DNA of 31,948 nucleotides, taken from IMG/VR virus record IMGVR_UViG_3300045988_134552, positions 1 through 31,948 of that record; one strand, written 5' to 3'. The stretch's first letter is position 1. Every line of letters starts with the position of its first letter. The stretch comes from a virus. Below the pieces are notes generated by a model, which saw only the letters and a list, made by a program, of their open reading frames with translations, made no database searches and was not told where the DNA came from. This document shows positions 3,148-31,948 of the stretch, in pieces. Made by a program: the position numbers and the translations under genes.

Positions 3148-4172
3148 CGATGAAGGGCATCGATATATCTGATTTTCAGCGAGGTCTCGACCTCACTAAA
3201 ATCGATTACGATTTCGTATTCTGCAAGGCGACCGAGGGCATCGATAAGGTTTATTCGACTTGCGACCCGTTTATCCAGACGGCGATCAGTCAGAAGAAGC
3301 TCTATGGCTTCTACCATTTCCTTGACCAGTCCGACCCGGTAAAGCAGGCCGAGTTCTTCTACGCCAACTGCAAGAACTACTTTGGCCGCGGCATCCCGAT
3401 GCTCGACTATGAAGCCTACGGTCGCATTGGAACTGATAAGGCGAAGCTGTTCCTGGATAAGATCTACGAGCTCACCGGTGTTCGCTGCATCGTCTATATG
3501 AGCCGAAGCGTCACCACGGAGGAAGACTGGTCACAGATTGCAAAGAACCACGCACTCTGGGTCGCGCAGTACGCCGACCGCAACGACACTGGATACCAAG
3601 ATTCTCCTTGGCTTCCTGATGGTGGATTCGGTGCCTGGAACAGCTGCGTCATCCATCAATACTCTTCTCACGGACGATTGAACGGGTATGACAAATACCT
3701 CGATCTCGACATCGCATACATGGACAAGCAAGCATGGTTTAAGTATGTTCATGGTGAACAGGCCGGGAATGCTGGCGCGGCTGTGGTTTGCCCCGTTGGT
3801 TCTACGCCTGATCTCGCTGCGGCGGTCATGCGAGGTAAGTACGGCAACGGTGAAGAGCGCAAGGCCAAGCTTGGCGCTCGATTCAACGAGGTTCAAGCCC
3901 TTATAAATCGTGTGGCTACCGCAAGTGCCGACGATCTTGCAGCAGACGTGCTCAACGGAAAGCTTGGCAACGGCGAGACGCGCAAGGCGATTCTTGGTGC
4001 CCGCTATGACGAGGTGCAAGCTGTGGTCAATTCCCGTGCAAACAATGTGGACATCGACGCTCTAGCACGCGCCGTCATTCGTGGTGAGTACGGTGACGGC
4101 GAAGCGCGCCGCGCCAAACTCGGAGTCAATTTCAATGCGGTTCAAAAACGAGTAAACGAACTTCTCAAGTAG
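3144..4172 (+). CDS. Endolysin: GH25 muramidase + 3 x CW_7 cell-wall-binding repeats (Cpl-7-like).
   Basis: N-terminal GIDISDFQ...KATEG...YGFYHF (GH25). Three ~45-aa repeats of the form VxRGxYGNGExRKAxLGxxxxxVQxxxN. Confidence 0.85.
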   Translation: MTMKGIDISDFQRGLDLTKIDYDFVFCKATEGIDKVYSTCDPFIQTAISQKKLYGFYHFLDQSDPVKQAEFFYANCKNYFGRGIPMLDYEAYGRIGTDKAKLFLDKIYELTGVRCIVYMSRSVTTEEDWSQIAKNHALWVAQYADRNDTGYQDSPWLPDGGFGAWNSCVIHQYSSHGRLNGYDKYLDLDIAYMDKQAWFKYVHGEQAGNAGAAVVCPVGSTPDLAAAVMRGKYGNGEERKAKLGARFNEVQALINRVATASADDLAADVLNGKLGNGETRKAILGARYDEVQAVVNSRANNVDIDALARAVIRGEYGDGEARRAKLGVNFNAVQKRVNELLK

Positions 4173-4182
4173 CCTATAGAAT

Positions 4183-4216
4183 AGCCCGCACCCTGAATGG
4201 GGTGCGGGCTATTTGC
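4183..4216. terminator. Bidirectional intrinsic terminator between the convergent endolysin (+) and RHH gene (-).
   Basis: Perfect 11-bp stem AGCCCGCACCC / GGGTGCGGGCT (4183-4193 / 4200-4210), 6-nt loop, then a T-rich run (ATTTGCGTTT). Confidence 0.7.
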
Positions 4217-4218
4217 GT

Positions 4219-4734
4219 TTAGATGTCGAAATAGAATTCTCGCCATTTTCTAAGCTCTTCGTCGGTCATGCTTGCGGCGTAGTCGAGCAACTTTTCTTCT
4301 GTCTTCGAGCGGTCAATCATGACTTGCTCGACATAGTTTAAGTTGAACCAAAGGGAACGGTCGCTCTCAAACTCAACGCCCTTGTCCATCAGCCATTCGA
4401 AGATTTCCTCAACGCTTCCGCCGTCAATCTCCGTCCACTCGCGATAGTCTCCAGTGCTTGAAATGTCGGCTTCCATATCAACGCACCCGTTAACGTACTC
4501 GCCAGAGATAGTGATCGTCACATCGCCTTTATTGGCCGTCTCGAAAACGTAGCTCTTTGGGCTTTTCATTGCTTCCATGTCCTTTCTGATGAGGTCTTTG
4601 ATGTACTGGTTACGGTTCTCTTTGCCTCGGAAGTACTCCAGGACTTCGGCATCCGACGGGAAGAACTTCACATTAAACGACTTGACGTTCGCCTTGCGGT
4701 ACTTCTCCGTTGCCTTGCTTCGCGCGTCTGCCAT
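4219..4734 (-). CDS. Ribbon-helix-helix (CopG/Arc-like) N-terminal domain protein with an uncharacterised ~110-aa C-terminal domain; moron-like position between lysis and recombinase genes.
   Basis: KSFNVKFFPSDAEVLEYFRG...NQYIKDLIRKDME fits an RHH beta-alpha-alpha pattern. AAAGGA sits 6 nt upstream of ATG 4734; the ORF-track TTG at 4752 lacks an RBS. Confidence 0.55.
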   Translation of the reverse strand: MADARSKATEKYRKANVKSFNVKFFPSDAEVLEYFRGKENRNQYIKDLIRKDMEAMKSPKSYVFETANKGDVTITISGEYVNGCVDMEADISSTGDYREWTEIDGGSVEEIFEWLMDKGVEFESDRSLWFNLNYVEQVMIDRSKTEEKLLDYAASMTDEELRKWREFYFDI

Positions 4735-4780
4735 GCTGTATCCTTTCGTCAAAGGCTCTGGGCATCATTTCAAGGTGGGC

Positions 4781-4808
4781 GGGTTGCCCGCCGCCAAGCG
4801 GGCAACCC
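4781..4808. promoter_or_regulatory. Perfect 11-6-11 inverted repeat (GGGTTGCCCGC cgccaa GCGGGCAACCC), 47-74 bp upstream of the RHH gene start; candidate operator or recombination site.
   Basis: Read directly. No flanking T-run, so not a terminator. Confidence 0.4.
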
Positions 4809-4944
4809 TTCCGCTTACCGTCTGTTAAGAAGGCGGAAGCGGATTTGGACGGTGACTGCGAATCGCCAAACCCTGAACGTGATGCTCATTGCCTTGCTCC
4901 TTTCTATCTTTCGAAAAGCCTTATTGCCTTTCGACACTTATTAT

Positions 4945-4986
4945 TATAGGGGTACCACTATATAATACAAGCTATAGGGGTACCAC
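4945..4986. repeat. Two copies of a 14-bp direct repeat TATAGGGGTACCAC (4945-4958, 4973-4986), flanking a TATATAAT element.
   Basis: Exact repeat read from the sequence, in the AT-rich spacer between the RHH and recombinase genes. Confidence 0.5.
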
Positions 4987-5024
4987 CACACACAACAAGC
5001 ACATTTGCTGACTGTTTTTGGTTT

Positions 5025-6500
5025 TCATGTACGAATCAGTGTTATTATGCAAAACCAGTTATTGGAGACTTTGATTTCGCGCCCATTGGCGGCTATCGTA
5101 GGGTTCGCAAAGATTTTCTGAGGCTCCACCATTGGATTATTAGACGAACCCTTTTTGGGGTTCGTCTTTTTTTGTTTCGGCTGGAAGTCATCGCCACAGT
5201 AATCGAAGGCGAAGTAAAGCTTGAGTTCATCCCCATCTACTTCAATGAGCCGCACGAACGTATCGATGATTTCTGCCGCGTCTGGTTCCTGTGCGATGTG
5301 ATCGAGCCAAGCGGCTATGTCTTCACCGGACAGGTGCGCACTTTCGCTAGCCTGAGCCTGCCGCAGGTCAGCTTCTAAGGCCGCTTTCTGCTCGCGGAGC
5401 ATATCAACGCGCTCTTTACCGCCGGGCGGTGCTATGCCGTCCTCAATAGCCTGCCAGATACGCTCAAATGCAGCGTCTATGCGCTTGATCTCGCGCTCAA
5501 TGCGCTTGCTCTCCGGTTCCTCCTTCTCTTCATTAATTTCGTCGTAAAGAGCCATTGCGTCAACGATGCGCTGACGTACATCCGGCTTCTTAATCGTTTC
5601 GAGGACGGTGTCGAGCACGGCTTCCTCGACGGCATCACGCCTAAAGGTGCGGCGGCATTTCTTGCACTTGTAGTAGTGGTAGACGCGTCCCGTTTTTGAC
5701 GTGCCGCAGGTGCCAACGTAATACTGGCCGCACTCTGGGCACCACATCTTGCCAGACAACGGATAATCGTTGGTGTCACGTGTCTTGTTGTGCTTGCGCC
5801 CGTTTGAACCCAAAATGCTGTTGATCATGTCCTGGTCTTCACGCGACCAAAGCGCGGGCATGCCGTCTTCGATTCGCACGCCCGCGTAATCGTAAACGCC
5901 GCAGTTCTGTTCGCGCCTGAGCAGCTTTGTTATCACGCCATGCGTCAACGGTTTGCCGCGCTTGCCGCGTTCACCTGCGACGGCACGCTTGATTTCGGCA
6001 ACGGTCGATCCGGCAAAGAGCATGTTTTTCATACGGTGCATCACGGCGGCTTCACGCTCGTTGACCTCGTAATACCCGTTAACGATGTCCCAGCCGTAAT
6101 GAGTGCGACCGTTCGCCATGCCGCGCTGGGCGTTCTTGTTGATTCCGTCTCGGATACGCTCGCTGTCGATTGCGCTTTCCCATTCAGCAAGTACCTCGAG
6201 CATGCCAAGGTTGAGCACGCGCGTTGAGCCTTCGCCAAGGCTCTCGCCGGCATAAAGTATTTCAACACCTGCTTTGCGCAACTTGATACGCGCGAGCGCC
6301 ATTTCATCGCGGTTACGCATAATGCGCGTGACCTTATAGATAACTACATAATCAAATATTCCGAGCTTTGCGTCTTTCATCATCGCTGCCCCAGATTCCC
6401 ATGACCTGTATGTGTACTTGTTAACGCCGATTCTCTCAGCAAACTCATCCCTGTTTGAGTAACCAGCGGCTTTTCTGAGCTTCATAAGCCTAATGTTCAC
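5025..6500 (-). CDS. Chimeric XRE-HTH::large serine recombinase. The catalytic Ser N-terminal half of the resolvase domain is missing, replaced by ~45 aa of Cro/cI-type HTH; the recombinase, zinc-ribbon and coiled-coil domains are intact. Likely not an active integrase.
   Basis: N-terminus MKLRKAAGYSNRDEFAERIGVNKYTYRSWESG is an HTH_XRE match, joined directly to ...FDYVVIYKVTRIMRNRDEMALARIKLRKAGVEIL... (second half of the resolvase catalytic domain). Downstream are a recombinase domain, CPECG...CKKCRR zinc ribbon and coiled coil. The 5' ~150 nt is AT-rich, unlike the rest. Start GTG 6500 with AGGAGA RBS. Confidence 0.6.
   Translation of the reverse strand: MNIRLMKLRKAAGYSNRDEFAERIGVNKYTYRSWESGAAMMKDAKLGIFDYVVIYKVTRIMRNRDEMALARIKLRKAGVEILYAGESLGEGSTRVLNLGMLEVLAEWESAIDSERIRDGINKNAQRGMANGRTHYGWDIVNGYYEVNEREAAVMHRMKNMLFAGSTVAEIKRAVAGERGKRGKPLTHGVITKLLRREQNCGVYDYAGVRIEDGMPALWSREDQDMINSILGSNGRKHNKTRDTNDYPLSGKMWCPECGQYYVGTCGTSKTGRVYHYYKCKKCRRTFRRDAVEEAVLDTVLETIKKPDVRQRIVDAMALYDEINEEKEEPESKRIEREIKRIDAAFERIWQAIEDGIAPPGGKERVDMLREQKAALEADLRQAQASESAHLSGEDIAAWLDHIAQEPDAAEIIDTFVRLIEVDGDELKLYFAFDYCGDDFQPKQKKTNPKKGSSNNPMVEPQKIFANPTIAANGREIKVSNNWFCIITLIRT
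5142..5177 (+). terminator. Strong plus-strand intrinsic terminator embedded in the 3' end of the minus-strand recombinase ORF.
   Basis: 10-bp perfect stem AGACGAACCC / GGGTTCGTCT, loop TTTTTG, then T6-G-T3. The reverse complement has no T-tract, so it is + strand specific. Confidence 0.6.
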
Positions 6501-6531
6501 TGCTAGTCTCCTTCTCTTTCAACGTAAGTGA

Positions 6532-6560
6532 ATAGTACAACTAAAATAGCTAATTAACAA
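6532..6560 (-). promoter_or_regulatory. Candidate leftward promoter for the HTH-recombinase gene (TTGTTA-17-TACTAT on the - strand).
   Basis: -35 = reverse complement of 6555-6560, -10 = reverse complement of 6532-6537, ~25 nt upstream of the RBS and GTG 6500. Confidence 0.4.
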
Positions 6561-6618
6561 CGAAATTGTTTGTTTTCGCTTGACATAGCTATTTTAAATG
6601 TCTATCCTCTGGAACCAG

Positions 6619-6648
6619 TTGCTAAGGAGATTAGCAGCTAGCTAATAT
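6619..6648 (+). promoter_or_regulatory. Candidate rightward promoter P1 (TTGCTA-18-TAATAT).
   Basis: Sigma-70-like hexamers read directly. Upstream of the tandem operator repeat and the cro-like gene. Confidence 0.35.
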
Positions 6649-6770
6649 TTCTCGGGTAAACCCGTGAAATATACGGGTGTTCTCATTGACAAGCAATTAG
6701 AACACCCGTATATTTCTCGGGTAAACCCGTGAAATATACGGGTGTTCTCATTGACAAGCAATGAGAACAC
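6645..6770 (+). repeat. Tandem 65-bp direct repeat (~1.9 copies). Each unit holds a 12-bp-arm palindrome centred on a TTGACA hexamer; putative operators O1 (6677-6705) and O2 (6742-6770).
   Basis: Units 6645-6709 and 6710-6770 are identical except one base. GTGTTCTCATTG-acaag-CAATGAGAACAC is perfect in O2 and has one mismatch in O1. Confidence 0.75.
6686..6714 (+). promoter_or_regulatory. Candidate rightward promoter P2 (consensus TTGACA-17-TATATT). Its -35 lies inside operator O1 and its -10 is formed by the start of repeat copy 2.
   Basis: Exact TTGACA at 6686-6691, 17-nt spacer, TATATT at 6709-6714. Directed toward the cro-like gene at 6799. Confidence 0.55.
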
Positions 6771-6798
6771 ATACCACTCATTGAAGGAGGTGAAACAT

Positions 6799-7023
6799 AT
6801 GAACTTCGATAAGGAGACTTTTGCGGCGAACCTACGCGCCGCACGCGCAAAGCTCGACATAACCCAAGACGAGTTCGCGCGTCGTGCCGGTATCTCCAAG
6901 GATGCCGTTGCGAAGTATGAGAGCGGCGAGGGCTACATTCCCGGTGCCGACAAGATCATGTCTATCTGCCGAGTGGCGCATATCAGCCCCAACGACCTTA
7001 TGGGATGGAAGGAGGTTGCCTAA
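6799..7023 (+). CDS. Cro/cI-type XRE helix-turn-helix regulator (74 aa).
   Basis: GAAGGAGGTG RBS 8 nt upstream. ...ITQDEFARRAGISKDAVAKYESGE... is the canonical HTH_XRE pattern. Divergent from the HTH-recombinase gene. Confidence 0.8.
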   Translation: MNFDKETFAANLRAARAKLDITQDEFARRAGISKDAVAKYESGEGYIPGADKIMSICRVAHISPNDLMGWKEVA

Positions 7024-7103
7024 TGGATGAAGTTATCGACGTCTTGACCCTCTGGTTGTTCTTGGTATCGGCTGTTGCCGTAGGCAGGATGATCAGCAAG
7101 TAA
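7023..7103 (+). CDS. Possible 26-aa hydrophobic peptide (MDEVIDVLTLWLFLVSAVAVGRMISK).
   Basis: ATG overlaps the cro stop (TAATGG). Single predicted TM; not in the ORF track because shorter than 60 aa. Confidence 0.25.
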   Translation: MDEVIDVLTLWLFLVSAVAVGRMISK

Positions 7104-11189: not shown

Positions 11190-11385
11190 GGTCTCCGGTT
11201 GCTGCGACGGATGCGGCAAGGAAGCCGACTGCACCAACATTAACGAATTCGCAAGGGTGCACGCCTATGACAAGGGCAAGCTGGTCGAGTTCGACATTTG
11301 CAAGAACTGCGTTCACGAGATTTGCGACATGTCGGGTAGCGTTATCGACGTCGTACGTGAATTGAAGCGCCGCCATGGACGTTGA
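11182..11385 (+). CDS. Cys-rich small protein (CCDGCG...C...CKNC).
   Basis: GGAGAGGGA RBS before ATG 11182. Confidence 0.4.
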   Translation: MIKVSGCCDGCGKEADCTNINEFARVHAYDKGKLVEFDICKNCVHEICDMSGSVIDVVRELKRRHGR

Positions 11386-12559
11386 GGTCAAGCGCGACCC
11401 AAAGGGCGTGTGGTACGCGCAGCCGTACCTTGGCAAGGCACCGGACGGGCGGCAGATACGGCCACGTCGTAGCTTCCCGGATGCCAGGACGCGCGATGAA
11501 GCGCAGGCTTTGGCCGATGCCTGGGCTTCGCACCTGACCCTTGACGGCAAGGTCAAGAGCACGCTCATAGTCGACCTGCTTTGGGAGTACATCGAGCAGA
11601 GGATGGTGAAGGGCGTGAGCCTTAACACCGTGAAGAGGTGGTCGCTCTTCACCCGAACCTACGTTGGAAAGTATCTCAAGGGCAAAGTCGCTCGAGACCT
11701 TACCGCTATCGAGCTGAACGACTTCGAGACGCGCCTTGGCGTGAGCAAGAAGGGCGGCGGGCAGGGTCTTTCGCGCAACACGATTATCAGCGTTCACCAC
11801 TTTTTGCGCGGCGCATACAACTTCTGGGTGCGCATCGGCATCTGCGAGAACAACCCAATGCTCATGGTCACAAAGCCGCCGGAGGAACGCCATGAGGCCG
11901 TGAGCATCGACGAATGGGATTACAGGGAGCTCGATGCCACGGTCTGCGAAAAGCTCGACCTTGAGATGCCCGAGAAGCGCTTCATGCGCCAATCGGCCTA
12001 CGCTTTCGCCGCCTGGCTCGCCCTGCATACGGGGATGCGCGTCGGCGAGGTGTGCGCCGTAAGGCGGCGCGACCTCCACCGCGCACAGGGCTTCATCCTC
12101 GTGAGCGGAACGGTCATTGAGATTCCGGGCGGCGGCGTGGCCCGTTCCAACGTGACCAAGAACAAGAAGACGCGGCCCGTGGCGCTAATCGACGAAGAGT
12201 GGGAGCGGATAAGAGCCTATCTCGCGCAACAGGATTCGATTTCAGACGCTTTCACGCCCGATTCGCCACTGGTGAGCGTAGACGGCTCATACATGCGCCC
12301 CACGACCGTCTCAAAGGCTTTCAGCCGTGCTCGCGACCGGGCGGGCATGCCGAAGGCGTACACGTTCCACTCATTGCGCCATACGCACGCCACGTGGTGC
12401 CTTGCCAACGGCGTTGACCTCAAGACGCTCGCAGATCGCTTAGGGCACTCGAACGAAGCGACAACGCTGAAACTCTACGCGCACCTTCTGCCGGGGCGCG
12501 ACCAGGCTGCGGCGCAGGCGTTCAACAGTTTCGCCAAGAAGCTCGGGGACGGAGTGTAA
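11375..12559 (+). CDS. int: Tyrosine recombinase / phage integrase (394 aa) with an N-terminal arm-binding-type domain; appears intact.
   Basis: C-terminal HSLRHTHATWCLANGVDLKTLADRLGHSN...TLKLYAHLL contains the R...HxxR...Y catalytic signature region. N-terminal KGVWYAQPYLGK..GRQIRPRRSF.DARTRDEAQ resembles integrase N-terminal (arm-type) domains. Confidence 0.8.
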   Translation: MDVEVKRDPKGVWYAQPYLGKAPDGRQIRPRRSFPDARTRDEAQALADAWASHLTLDGKVKSTLIVDLLWEYIEQRMVKGVSLNTVKRWSLFTRTYVGKYLKGKVARDLTAIELNDFETRLGVSKKGGGQGLSRNTIISVHHFLRGAYNFWVRIGICENNPMLMVTKPPEERHEAVSIDEWDYRELDATVCEKLDLEMPEKRFMRQSAYAFAAWLALHTGMRVGEVCAVRRRDLHRAQGFILVSGTVIEIPGGGVARSNVTKNKKTRPVALIDEEWERIRAYLAQQDSISDAFTPDSPLVSVDGSYMRPTTVSKAFSRARDRAGMPKAYTFHSLRHTHATWCLANGVDLKTLADRLGHSNEATTLKLYAHLLPGRDQAAAQAFNSFAKKLGDGV

Positions 12560-14554: not shown

Positions 14555-14616
14555 GATTGGTACTTGTCATCACTTTTCGGTTTGCGTTATATTTCGGTAC
14601 GGTGGATTATCAGAAA

Positions 14617-30448: not shown

Positions 30449-31948
30449 ATGAGCAAGACGCACATCGCCGATCACGAAACGCTCGAGCGCGTCGCAATCG
30501 CGCTCGAATCCATGGGGGCTTCAACAGTCCCCATTTTTAATGACGAGACTGGACGTTATACGAATGCAAGCATCACTGCATGGCTCGCGAAGATGCGCGA
30601 CGGCAAGAACTACGGCGTTAGTATCCCAAAGGGGAGTGCCACGGCCTGCACCAAGACCGGAGCAAACGCCGGAATCGCGAATCCTAAGCCCGGCGTAATC
30701 GGTCGCGCGGCAATCGACCCGTACGTTAACCACGGCGCGTTCACCTTCTTCGAGGTGAACGGCGGCGTTGATGCGGACGGAACGCCTTATGTCACCGCAA
30801 TCGACGGTGACGGGCGCTTCTCGCGCAAGGACGACACGTGGATCATGACGCCCGTTCTCTACACGCTTGAAACCGAGACGGACGATGCCGTAAACCTCAC
30901 CGTCTCGGACACACGCCAGCCGGGCATGAAGCGGCAGCCCGCCGCACTGCTGCCGAACGGTGCGCAGCGTCCTTATATGTTGTATGCAAAGTATGCACTG
31001 TCGGTCGATGCCGAAGGCAAGCCGCGAAGCGTGAGCGGCGCGCAGGTGAAGCGCTTCGTAAGCCACGATACCGGCGTCTCGCTCATGAAAACGGCAACGA
31101 AGGGTGATTCATTCAAAACTGCCGCCGATGACTGGTATGTCAAGGTCATGTTCCTCTTGAAGTATGCCACCAAGAACAGCCAGAGCGTGTTCGCGGGCTG
31201 CACGGGATACGACGTACAGATGATCCCGACCGTGGCAGAGAGCAACACCACGCGCGTCGTGGTCGCGAAGGAGAAGGCCGATCAGATTCTTATCGGCTCT
31301 TCGATGATTCTGGGAACACATACGGGCACGTCGAACGACCGTGGCAATGGCTACAACTATGACGTGTTCGATGCCGCGACCGTTATCAAGAAGGTCGATA
31401 TCGACGCATCGAACACAGCCATATACTTCGACGTCGCGAAGCCGTTCACGACTGCCACCACATACCTTTTGAGCACCGTCCCGTGGAGGGCTGGCGCTTG
31501 CGATGCGGTTGAGGGCGACGGATCGCCGACGAGCTGCACGGACGGAAAGCAGCCCTTTGTCGTTCAGGGTATCGAGCTCGGCCTTGGAATGCTTGAGGTT
31601 CTTGGAAACGTCCTAATCCAGTACACAGGTACTGGCGCGGTCGTTTACGTGAACCCGGACACTAAGAACGAGAAGGCCGGCAGCTCACCGGACAGCGCGC
31701 TGTCTGCCGGGGCTTTTCCCGGACAAGCAGCTGAGGGATGGAATTACGCTCTTTACTGCAAGACGGTCAACGGCCTGATGATTCAGCAGGGAACGGGTGC
31801 GTCGACTTCAGTTGGCATCTGCGACGGCAACTACAAGGTCGCTGACACTACCGTCGGTTGGAGAGAGTGGCCTTCTCTCGGCCGCTTGGGGAACTGGGCT
31901 AACGGCGGTCTTTGGTTCGTTAACGGCTACAACGGCACCGGCAACGCC
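30449..31948 (+). CDS. DGR target gene (N-terminal ~500 codons). Putative receptor-binding/tail-fibre protein with a C-terminal C-type lectin-fold VR. Continues to the stop at 135-137 after the circular junction; ~519 aa in total.
   Basis: ATG 30449 directly after the upstream stop. The frame was verified open to the window end. Last gene of the tail module. VR copy at 31873-31948. Confidence 0.75.
   Translation, partial: MSKTHIADHETLERVAIALESMGASTVPIFNDETGRYTNASITAWLAKMRDGKNYGVSIPKGSATACTKTGANAGIANPKPGVIGRAAIDPYVNHGAFTFFEVNGGVDADGTPYVTAIDGDGRFSRKDDTWIMTPVLYTLETETDDAVNLTVSDTRQPGMKRQPAALLPNGAQRPYMLYAKYALSVDAEGKPRSVSGAQVKRFVSHDTGVSLMKTATKGDSFKTAADDWYVKVMFLLKYATKNSQSVFAGCTGYDVQMIPTVAESNTTRVVVAKEKADQILIGSSMILGTHTGTSNDRGNGYNYDVFDAATVIKKVDIDASNTAIYFDVAKPFTTATTYLLSTVPWRAGACDAVEGDGSPTSCTDGKQPFVVQGIELGLGMLEVLGNVLIQYTGTGAVVYVNPDTKNEKAGSSPDSALSAGAFPGQAAEGWNYALYCKTVNGLMIQQGTGASTSVGICDGNYKVADTTVGWREWPSLGRLGNWANGGLWFVNGYNGTGNA

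Follow-up and report, generated by a model that had tools for sequence, protein, structure and literature searches.

Palindromes that lie beside small genes for XRE-type helix-turn-helix (HTH) proteins and overlap promoter elements are familiar from the lambdoid CI/Cro operators OR1-3 and from the operators of restriction-modification controllers. Long stem-loops of phage early leaders, such as those of the T7 early sites, the lambda N leader and SP82, serve as RNase III or 5′ stabiliser hairpins and act in cis on mRNA processing, stability and translation. Virulent or clear-plaque derivatives are represented by lambda vir and by spontaneous lysogeny-module deletions in dairy streptococcal phages. 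The put RNAs of HK022 (putL and putR) are cis-acting antitermination and anti-pausing elements of about 70 nt with two stem-loops; putL follows the early promoter closely, and its stem I contains a −10-like hexamer at +23 to +28 (PMC9378689). We analysed a 31,948-nt virus sequence, IMG/VR record IMGVR_UViG_3300045988_134552 (hereafter the window), in which a palindromic module, present twice in tandem, lies between a leftward gene derived from a cI-like repressor gene and a rightward cro-like gene. The genome matches among its relatives are prophages in Collinsella, and the host is therefore a gut actinobacterium. Collinsella is common in the human gut; to our knowledge there has been no experimental study of its phages, and our literature search found nothing on Collinsella phage switches. 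We put at about even the chance that the whole of the following account holds: the two palindromes of the module, A and B, would act in cis as folded RNA in the cro leader, their rare duplication would have created a bypass promoter as a side effect, and the genome would be a lytic-only derivative.

A repeat search confirmed the duplication reported by an earlier sequence-only reading, at 6645-6705 and 6710-6770, as a direct repeat of 61 nt with 98% identity and 65-nt spacing. The tandem repeat is thus real, but it is not the clean pair of near-identical 65-bp units that had been described, since the copied sequence is 61 nt long and the 4-nt filler CCGT between the units is not part of it. 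Each unit holds two palindromes without a half-site in common. Palindrome B has 12-nt arms around the centre TTGACAAGCAA and is, as that reading stated, perfect in unit 2 (GTGTTCTCATTG-ACAAG-CAATGAGAACAC) and interrupted by one mismatch in unit 1. The sole mismatch of B1 is due to T6698; a G stands at the matching site in unit 2 and in all relatives. Palindrome A (ATATTTCTCGGGT-AA-ACCCGTGAAATAT) had been overlooked, as had the larger symmetry found by the repeat search: because A and B are each palindromic, A1, B1 and A2 together make up one inverted repeat with 44-nt arms. The long form of A, with 19-nt arms, is also seen in relatives of arm type K (see below). The predicted RNA fold of 6615-6810 has an energy of −91 kcal/mol (z = −11.5 against shuffles), compared with −46 kcal/mol (z = −6.0) for a one-unit leader, and in the two-unit fold A1, B1 and A2 are predicted to merge into one long helix. 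The repeat and its palindromes are far beyond chance.

Relatives were gathered by an exact search for the Cro protein, from IMG/VR and from GTDB genomes, three routes that together gave 79 related loci (L001-L081 less two unrelated ones). The A+B module is present in 61 of them, as a single unit in 60 and doubled in L011 alone. IMG/VR and metagenomes were also searched with a fixed-length pattern spanning both centres. Of the 26 contigs matched in IMG/VR, about 25 hold true modules, with two units in the L011 contig (3300045988_126629) alone. The metagenome matches were mostly due to chance and were removed by an arm-complementarity filter; 23 distinct single-copy variants on about 40 loci passed it, with no doubled module and no new arm type among them. 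BLASTN of 6400-7100 against a phage collection gave no match. The comparison of repeat number in homologous phages, which the sequence-only reading had proposed, thus speaks against the array as a conserved operator feature: the tandem copy in the window is a rare, recent rearrangement.

Around the locus, the sequence of L011 diverges from that of the window by about 6%. Within either genome, the two units resemble each other more than they resemble those of the other genome, and both junctions read GAACAC-CCGT-ATATTT, which suggests either a recurrent origin by a deterministic mechanism or a single origin followed by conversion. The palindromes probably drove the duplication: by a snap-back at B, ...ACGG would be copied as CCGT, and re-annealing at ATATTTC would complete the direct repeat, which accounts for the arrangement in the window. 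In a Collinsella metagenome-assembled genome (L068, DXZO01000042.1), a run of N about 60-70 nt upstream of cro spans the distance from the A centre to the B centre. Palindromes probably break or mask assemblies, and copy number may be under-reported in short-read data.

The sequence of the module varies in a structured way. Its 37 distinct variants, aligned for an analysis of covariation, have zero indels and fall into four main arm types: W (B arms GTTCTCA/TGAGAAC, inner A arms TCTC/GTGA), W2 (B arms GTTCTCC/GGAGAAC, inner A arms as in W), G (TGGCTAC/GTAGCCA and CCTW/WAGG) and K (GCAAACC/GGTTTGC and TAAC/GTTA). A fifth arm type, with B arms GTTCACG/CGTGAAC, occurs in the more distant relative L306, where both hairpins are kept with different loops (ACAGG in B; A centre AGGTACCCA). 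We scored a structure in which A columns 6-21 face 26-41 and B columns 42-53 face 59-70. Over the 37 variants 86% of the cells are paired, against 29-47% when the partner column is slid; changes on both sides affect 8 of the 12 B pairs and 5 of the 16 A pairs, and RNAalifold recovered the same two helices. The invariant columns are those of the asymmetric centres (TTGACAAG.AA; G.AAA.C) and the ATA.GG between the hairpins, the centres (ACAAG and TAAA) being fixed within the four main types. Frequent mismatches at A columns 17/30 and 18/29 suggest an internal loop. Among single changes in the stems, eight gave G.U as read on the + strand and one gave A.C. With local singleton counts of 110 (C>T), 54 (A>G), 90 (G>A) and 27 (T>C), the expected ratio is 58:42 (p about 0.06), and this strand test based on wobble pairs is suggestive only.

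The opposite pattern is seen in palindrome 0, TGCTAA-N5-TTAGCA, to the left of the module, whose arms are invariant in all loci with the first of two cI types (cI-1) while its spacer varies (GGAGA, GCAGA, GGAAA, CGTGG). The variable arms and fixed centres of A and B are the reverse of this, and the contrast suggests selection on them as hairpins, for pairing of the arms and for specific loop sequences. Palindrome 0 is a candidate operator and looks as would be expected of a repressor site. The likelier repressor sites thus appear to be further left than the module, in palindrome 0 and in the TAGCTA motifs of the back-to-back promoters.

The sequence-only reading had interpreted the region as an operator array built by duplication and read by HTH proteins encoded on either side. 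Its description of the region, of the duplication and of the promoter at the junction holds, and HTH genes do flank the region, a cI-derived gene leftward and a cro-like XRE gene rightward, but the array does not appear to be read by these two proteins. Their recognition helices, said to be similar, are not alike (VNKYTYRSWE in cI, ISKDAVAKYE in Cro). In the relatives, the leftward side consists of two genes, coding for an HTH_3 repressor-like protein of 107-112 aa (called cI) and for a serine integrase, about 500 aa long, whose resolvase domain is complete. Helix 2-3 of Cro reads TQDEFARRAGISKDAVAKYESG in type W, SQDEFA(K/R)R(V/A)GISKDSVVKYESG in type G and TQDEFASRVGISKDSVVKYESG in type K; helix 3 is near-constant overall, and is the same in G and K although their arms differ at 5/7 positions. 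The HTH of cI-1, SNRDEFAE.IGVNKYTYRSWESG, is identical in W, W2, G and module-less contexts, and that of cI-2, an unrelated second cI type with its own promoter region, SQA.FA.AVGV.MRTVGSWERG, is identical in G, K and L306 contexts. Because the arms vary while all three HTHs stay constant, they do not seem to be read by Cro or by either cI, and the module is probably not a set of binding sites for these proteins. Identical cassettes of Cro and module occur next to both cI types, the join falling at the left edge of A. In a sister clade (Cro 70% identical, helix 3 VSKDAIVKYESG) the module is absent and the promoters are kept. No gene whose presence tracks that of the module could be established among the relatives, the comparison being confounded by the fact that the module-less phages form a separate, more divergent clade.

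The position of the module relative to the predicted promoters bears on its function. The −35 element and the TATnnT of the rightward promoter candidate PR are kept in all cI-1 loci, including those without a module, and in cI-2 loci TTGCAA-17-TATACT occupies the equivalent place. Transcripts from either promoter would reach A after about 30 nt, past a palindrome specific to the cI type, and about 30 nt separate the module from the cro ribosome-binding site downstream. Because PR is conserved even in module-less loci, A and B would be placed within the transcript. The flanking promoters named by the sequence-only reading could be located as well. The leftward TTGTTA-17-TACTAT matches the consensus at 8/12 positions, which is under the scanner threshold, and the rightward TTGCTA-18-TAATAT (6619-6624 and 6643-6648) is present only where the module joins a cI-1 left half. 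Palindrome A overlaps TAATAT in these cI-1 contexts only, and the conserved promoters (6532-6608) are outside the module. The number of promoter-like sites in the region, two against 1.5 ± 1.3 in shuffles, is not above chance.

One of these sites owes its existence to the duplication. In single-unit genomes the TTGACA at the centre of B is followed by no −10 element. At the junction, the TTGACA of the B1 loop now stands 17 nt upstream of the TATATT at the start of unit 2, just as the sequence-only reading had it, and the resulting near-consensus promoter-like site (11/12) ranks first among sigma-70 matches across the 32-kb genome, followed by PR. It is present in the window and in L011, not in the single-unit L002, and is exclusive to the two duplicated genomes. 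If active, it would start transcripts of cro and the lytic operon at about 6721 despite a repressor bound upstream, because it lies downstream of palindrome 0 and of the TAGCTA motifs. The duplication may in this way drive the lytic operon independently of the repressor, provided that the predicted promoter functions.

The leftward side of the window is also rearranged. Alignment with L002 (window 4043-6388 with L002 2808-5155; window 6376-6705 with L002 5643-5972) reveals a deletion of 500 bp with microhomology at its junction (Table 1), which joins cI, through ...SWESGAAMM, to Int from KDAKLGIFDYVV... on. The fusion is without the catalytic AAIYARFSSHNQ region of Int, its Pfam Resolvase match covering profile positions 53-144 instead of the 1-144 found in L002 and intact relatives, and without helices 4-5 and the C-terminus of cI, with an HTH_3 match restricted to 1-32 (20.1 bits, under the 23-bit cut-off). 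The complete N-terminal catalytic domain with nucleophilic Ser that characterizes large serine integrases is thus missing from the ORF at 5025-6500. What had been taken for an HTH-recombinase gene is the product of an in-frame deletion, in which cI lost its 3′ part and Int its catalytic N-terminus; the exact fusion protein is on record nowhere else. Since L011 is doubled with cI and int intact, the deletion and the duplication were separate events.

The two ends of the window overlap exactly over 77 nt (1-77 and 31872-31948), and for this reason we regard it as a complete genome, about 31,871 bp in size and assembled as a circle, not as an integrated prophage. The genome codes for a terminase, tail genes and a GH25/CW_7 endolysin. 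Its immunity region is otherwise 99.7% identical to those of L002, L005 and L006, the single difference being T6698, a base of the junction-promoter spacer that also weakens B1. Three lesions, the repressor-integrase deletion, the duplication and the stem-weakening T6698, are thus gathered within about 325 bp. The genome is most plausibly that of a temperate phage which has become lytic-only in nature, a phenotype deduced from these lesions.

Table 1. Features of the immunity region of the window (positions in the 31,948-nt sequence)
Feature	Position	Strand	Evidence
In-frame cI′-′int deletion fusion, 491 aa, without the Int catalytic Ser region and cI helices 4-5	5025-6500	−	profile matches, alignments
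Deletion junction, 500 bp absent relative to L002, microhomology TTCATCATC	6376-6388	.	alignment
Leftward promoter candidate TTGTTA-17-TACTAT, conserved (TTGTTA 6560-6555, TACTAT 6537-6532)	6532-6560	−	read from sequence; invariant alignment block
TAGCTA motif in the leftward-promoter spacer, mirrored by TAGCTA 6586-6591 in the PR spacer	6547-6552	.	repeat search, alignment
PR candidate TTGACA-17-TATCCT, rightward, conserved	6580-6608	+	scan, 10/12; alignment
Palindrome 0, TGCTAA-N5-TTAGCA, candidate operator	6620-6636	.	alignment
Repeat unit 1 (A1, B1 and CCGT filler)	6645-6709	+	repeat search, sequence
Palindrome/hairpin A1, 13-nt arms, centre AA, one T.T mismatch	6645-6672	+	repeat search; covariation
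Palindrome/hairpin B1, 12-nt arms, loop ACAAG, C.T mismatch due to T6698	6677-6705	+	sequence
Promoter-like TTGACA-17-TATATT made by the duplication junction (TTGACA 6686-6691, 17-nt spacer, TATATT 6709-6714)	6686-6714	+	scan, 11/12; best in genome
Palindrome/hairpin A2, long form, 19-nt arms completed by the CCGT filler	6704-6743	+	sequence
Repeat unit 2 (A2 and B2), counterpart of the single unit of relatives	6710-6774	+	repeat search, alignments to relatives
Palindrome/hairpin B2, perfect 12-nt arms, loop ACAAG	6742-6770	+	repeat search
cro-like XRE HTH gene, 74 aa	6799-7023	+	HTH_3, E = 1.5e-11

Taken together, the conserved entity would be one module of about 65 nt, consisting of two adjacent stem-loops in the 5′ leader of the early (cro) operon of Collinsella temperate phages, about 30 nt past the predicted PR start. 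Its pattern of variation makes a folded, cis-acting RNA the most likely form in which the module works. The likeliest roles would be the stabilization or processing of the leader, or an effect on the elongating polymerase; an effect on translation is conceivable too. Several other functions of a leader were considered and rejected. An intrinsic terminator would call for a U tract on the + strand, and A and B are followed instead by ACGGGU and AUACCAC, with weak scanner matches only; canonical terminators with T-runs occur elsewhere in the genome. The mini-ORF seen in B of type W is missing from the other types, which discounts a leader peptide, and sequestration of the ribosome-binding site by B was dismissed since the anti-Shine-Dalgarno-like CUCCUU occurs in type W2 only. 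A second copy of the module elsewhere in the genome, comparable to the nutL/nutR pair, was not found. A further hairpin is predicted at 6779-6810, where AUUGAAG before the Shine-Dalgarno sequence pairs with CUUCGAU in cro codons 3-4, enclosing the ribosome-binding site and the start codon. The relatives L300-L305, with Cro 81% identical, carry a different leader with one hairpin (TTGTTCTT...AAGAACAA) and without the A/B centres; the leader is thus replaceable.

Several observations weigh against the interpretation of A and B as folded leader RNA. The transcription starts are consensus-scan predictions, and a scan of Rfam 15 yielded no family at its gathering score, only generic miRNA-hairpin matches far under threshold. 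All eight G.U cases are + strand C>T changes, which leaves the wobble test marginal, and many of the single mismatches in the stems are of other kinds than wobble. A DNA palindrome that changes symmetrically is indistinguishable from RNA with covariation; the existence of only five arm types implies few independent events, and template switching inside the palindromes could produce apparently compensated changes without selection. The reader of the arms may also be a co-varying DNA-binding protein other than Cro or cI. As for the duplication, the CCGT filler of L011 mismatches its own upstream ATGG, so that the snap-back model does not fit cleanly, and the intact cI and int of L011 indicate that duplication alone may allow lysogeny or be neutral. 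A bolder version of the account seems to us quite unlikely, and is advanced by analogy with HK022: the module would be a put-like leader RNA that modifies RNA polymerase without the help of a protein, and the duplication a recurrent route to virulence. Such an RNA would fold on emergence, perhaps with the aid of sigma-dependent pausing at the −10-like hexamer of stem A, and one early promoter could then read through the roughly 29-kb one-directional lytic programme; palindrome-templated duplication would recurrently provide gut phages with a repressor-insensitive promoter, and thereby lead to virulence.

The location of the palindromes between divergent cI and cro genes invites the proposal that A, B or both serve the lysis-lysogeny switch as operators in double-stranded DNA, where Cro, cI or another phage regulator would bind, with tandem copies allowing cooperative control of the divergent promoters. 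A overlaps the −10/+1 of TTGCTA-18-TAATAT in cI-1 contexts and the −10 of the junction promoter when duplicated, and A+B is always inherited with cro as a cassette, which would suit an autoregulatory site of the kind found in restriction-modification controller operators. We nevertheless consider operators unlikely. The divergence of the arms has no match in Cro helix 3 or in either cI HTH, fixed asymmetric centres are the reverse of what is seen in typical HTH-dimer operators as well as in palindrome 0, and perfect arms of 12-19 nt exceed what such proteins need. Moreover, Cro helix 3 is near-identical in the sister clade that has no module, A and B lack a common half-site, and the tandem state is confined to two genomes. 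It is improbable that the conserved sequences are those of a leftward promoter reading through PR into cI, for establishment or as antisense (cf. lambda PRE), the palindromes being regulatory or incidental. A −35 TTGCTT in the B centre, a 17-nt spacer and a −10 TATNTT in the right arm of A can be recognized, with hexamers and spacing invariant in 37/37 variants (columns 33-38 and 56-61), and L306 keeps TTGCCT-17-TATATT. However, this −35 matches at only 3/6 positions and the scanner did not pick up the site; conservation of the hexamers follows automatically from that of the hairpin geometry, the compensated arm changes would be left unexplained, and the module travels with cro, not with cI.

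A role of A and B as DNA is also conceivable in the form of extruded hairpins or cruciforms, marking a recombination hotspot or boundary of the cI-cro cassettes or a site for the tyrosine recombinase encoded at 11375-12559 (+). The mosaic breakpoints at the left edge of A, the two duplications, the L068 assembly gap at the module and the presence of this recombinase in the same operon would all fit, but the enzyme is encoded by every relative, module-less ones included, and a hotspot gives no reason for fixed loop sequences. Core sites of tyrosine recombinases typically have spacers of 6-8 nt, whereas those of A and B are 2 and 5 nt, and we hold this explanation to be very improbable. It is possible, though doubtful, that the duplication is a neutral or slightly harmful slip of the palindromes and that its promoter-like junction is a coincidence, as its rarity, the intactness of cI and int in L011 and the chance-level count of promoter-like sites in the region would have it. 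Coincidence is harder to reconcile with a junction that is the best match in 32 kb, with its occurrence in two backgrounds about 6% apart, and with its co-occurrence with two further lesions in an immunity region otherwise so close to those of relatives.

Some other features of the genome deserve mention. An attachment site in the cI-cro region was considered and rejected, as similarity to the integrated relatives stops near 5124, at the 3′ end of int. The C-terminus of Int differs after ...NNPMVE. Because similarity ends there and the C-terminus diverges, the attP core is placed inside the 3′ end of int. A strong hairpin followed by a T-run lies on the + strand at 5142-5167, just inside int. 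The tyrosine recombinase (394 aa, Phage_integrase, phrog_1) belongs to the early rightward operon. Near the circular junction there is a probable diversity-generating retroelement, with a variable repeat at 31868-31948/1-99, a template repeat at 207-309 and a reverse transcriptase gene (RVT_1) at 491-1669. The repeats form a 103-nt pair with 91% identity, in which 7/9 mismatches fall on adenines of the copy adjoining the reverse transcriptase gene; the variable copy is the end of a gene that spans the circular junction and adjoins the tail genes. The third-best promoter-like site of the genome, TTGTCA-18-TATATT (14564-14593, +, 10/12), precedes the packaging genes and is a possible late promoter.

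The locus makes available a compact cis-element at the decision point between lysogeny and lysis, with two hairpins whose stems change fast and whose loops are fixed, in a natural genome where three neighbouring lesions appear to turn a temperate phage lytic. If the junction promoter is active and escapes the repressor, it would illustrate how virulent variants originate from gut prophages; if the hairpins act on the polymerase, control by put-type RNA would reach beyond the lambdoid coliphages. If neither is true, what is left is an ordinary structured leader with a chance duplication. The novelty is modest: the module would be an undescribed, lineage-restricted leader element, and the genome a natural virulent-type variant.

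Comparison with the known systems helps to place both the module and the genome. Like lambdoid CI/Cro operators and those of restriction-modification controllers, the palindromes lie next to small XRE HTH genes and, in some contexts, overlap predicted promoter elements. However, in those operators the half-sites are either conserved or change together with the recognition helix, around degenerate centres, whereas the module combines fixed centres with arms that vary without change in the proteins. An operator array would be expected to hold one palindromic consensus in several copies; this was not found, repetition arising only through the duplication in two genomes, and five arm types facing constant HTHs are at odds with half-sites that are conserved or follow the helix. 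The genome itself is comparable to virulent derivatives in that a short deletion costs it repressor and integrase and its lytic operator-promoter region is changed as well. It differs from them in being a circular metagenomic assembly, with a phenotype deduced from sequence, and in that the change upstream of the lytic genes is a palindrome-templated duplication, not a set of operator point mutations.

The module resembles in architecture the put RNAs of HK022, with which it shares two adjacent, structurally conserved stem-loops at a similar length (about 65-70 nt). It would begin about +30 from the predicted PR start, and like putL it has a −10-like hexamer in its first stem, here TAATAT, TATATT or TATGTT on the 5′ side of stem A. 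Unlike HK022, where the put stems are bulged and indented, its stems are near-perfect helices, and it is present as one copy per genome in phages of an actinobacterial host. There was no put family among the Rfam hits, and the likeness to putL, in size, layout, predicted position and hexamer, is a resemblance, not membership. With the RNase III and stabiliser hairpins the module has in common its long stem-loops in an early-operon leader, as predicted from sequence; its conserved loops, which simple stabilisers would not need, suggest specific recognition.

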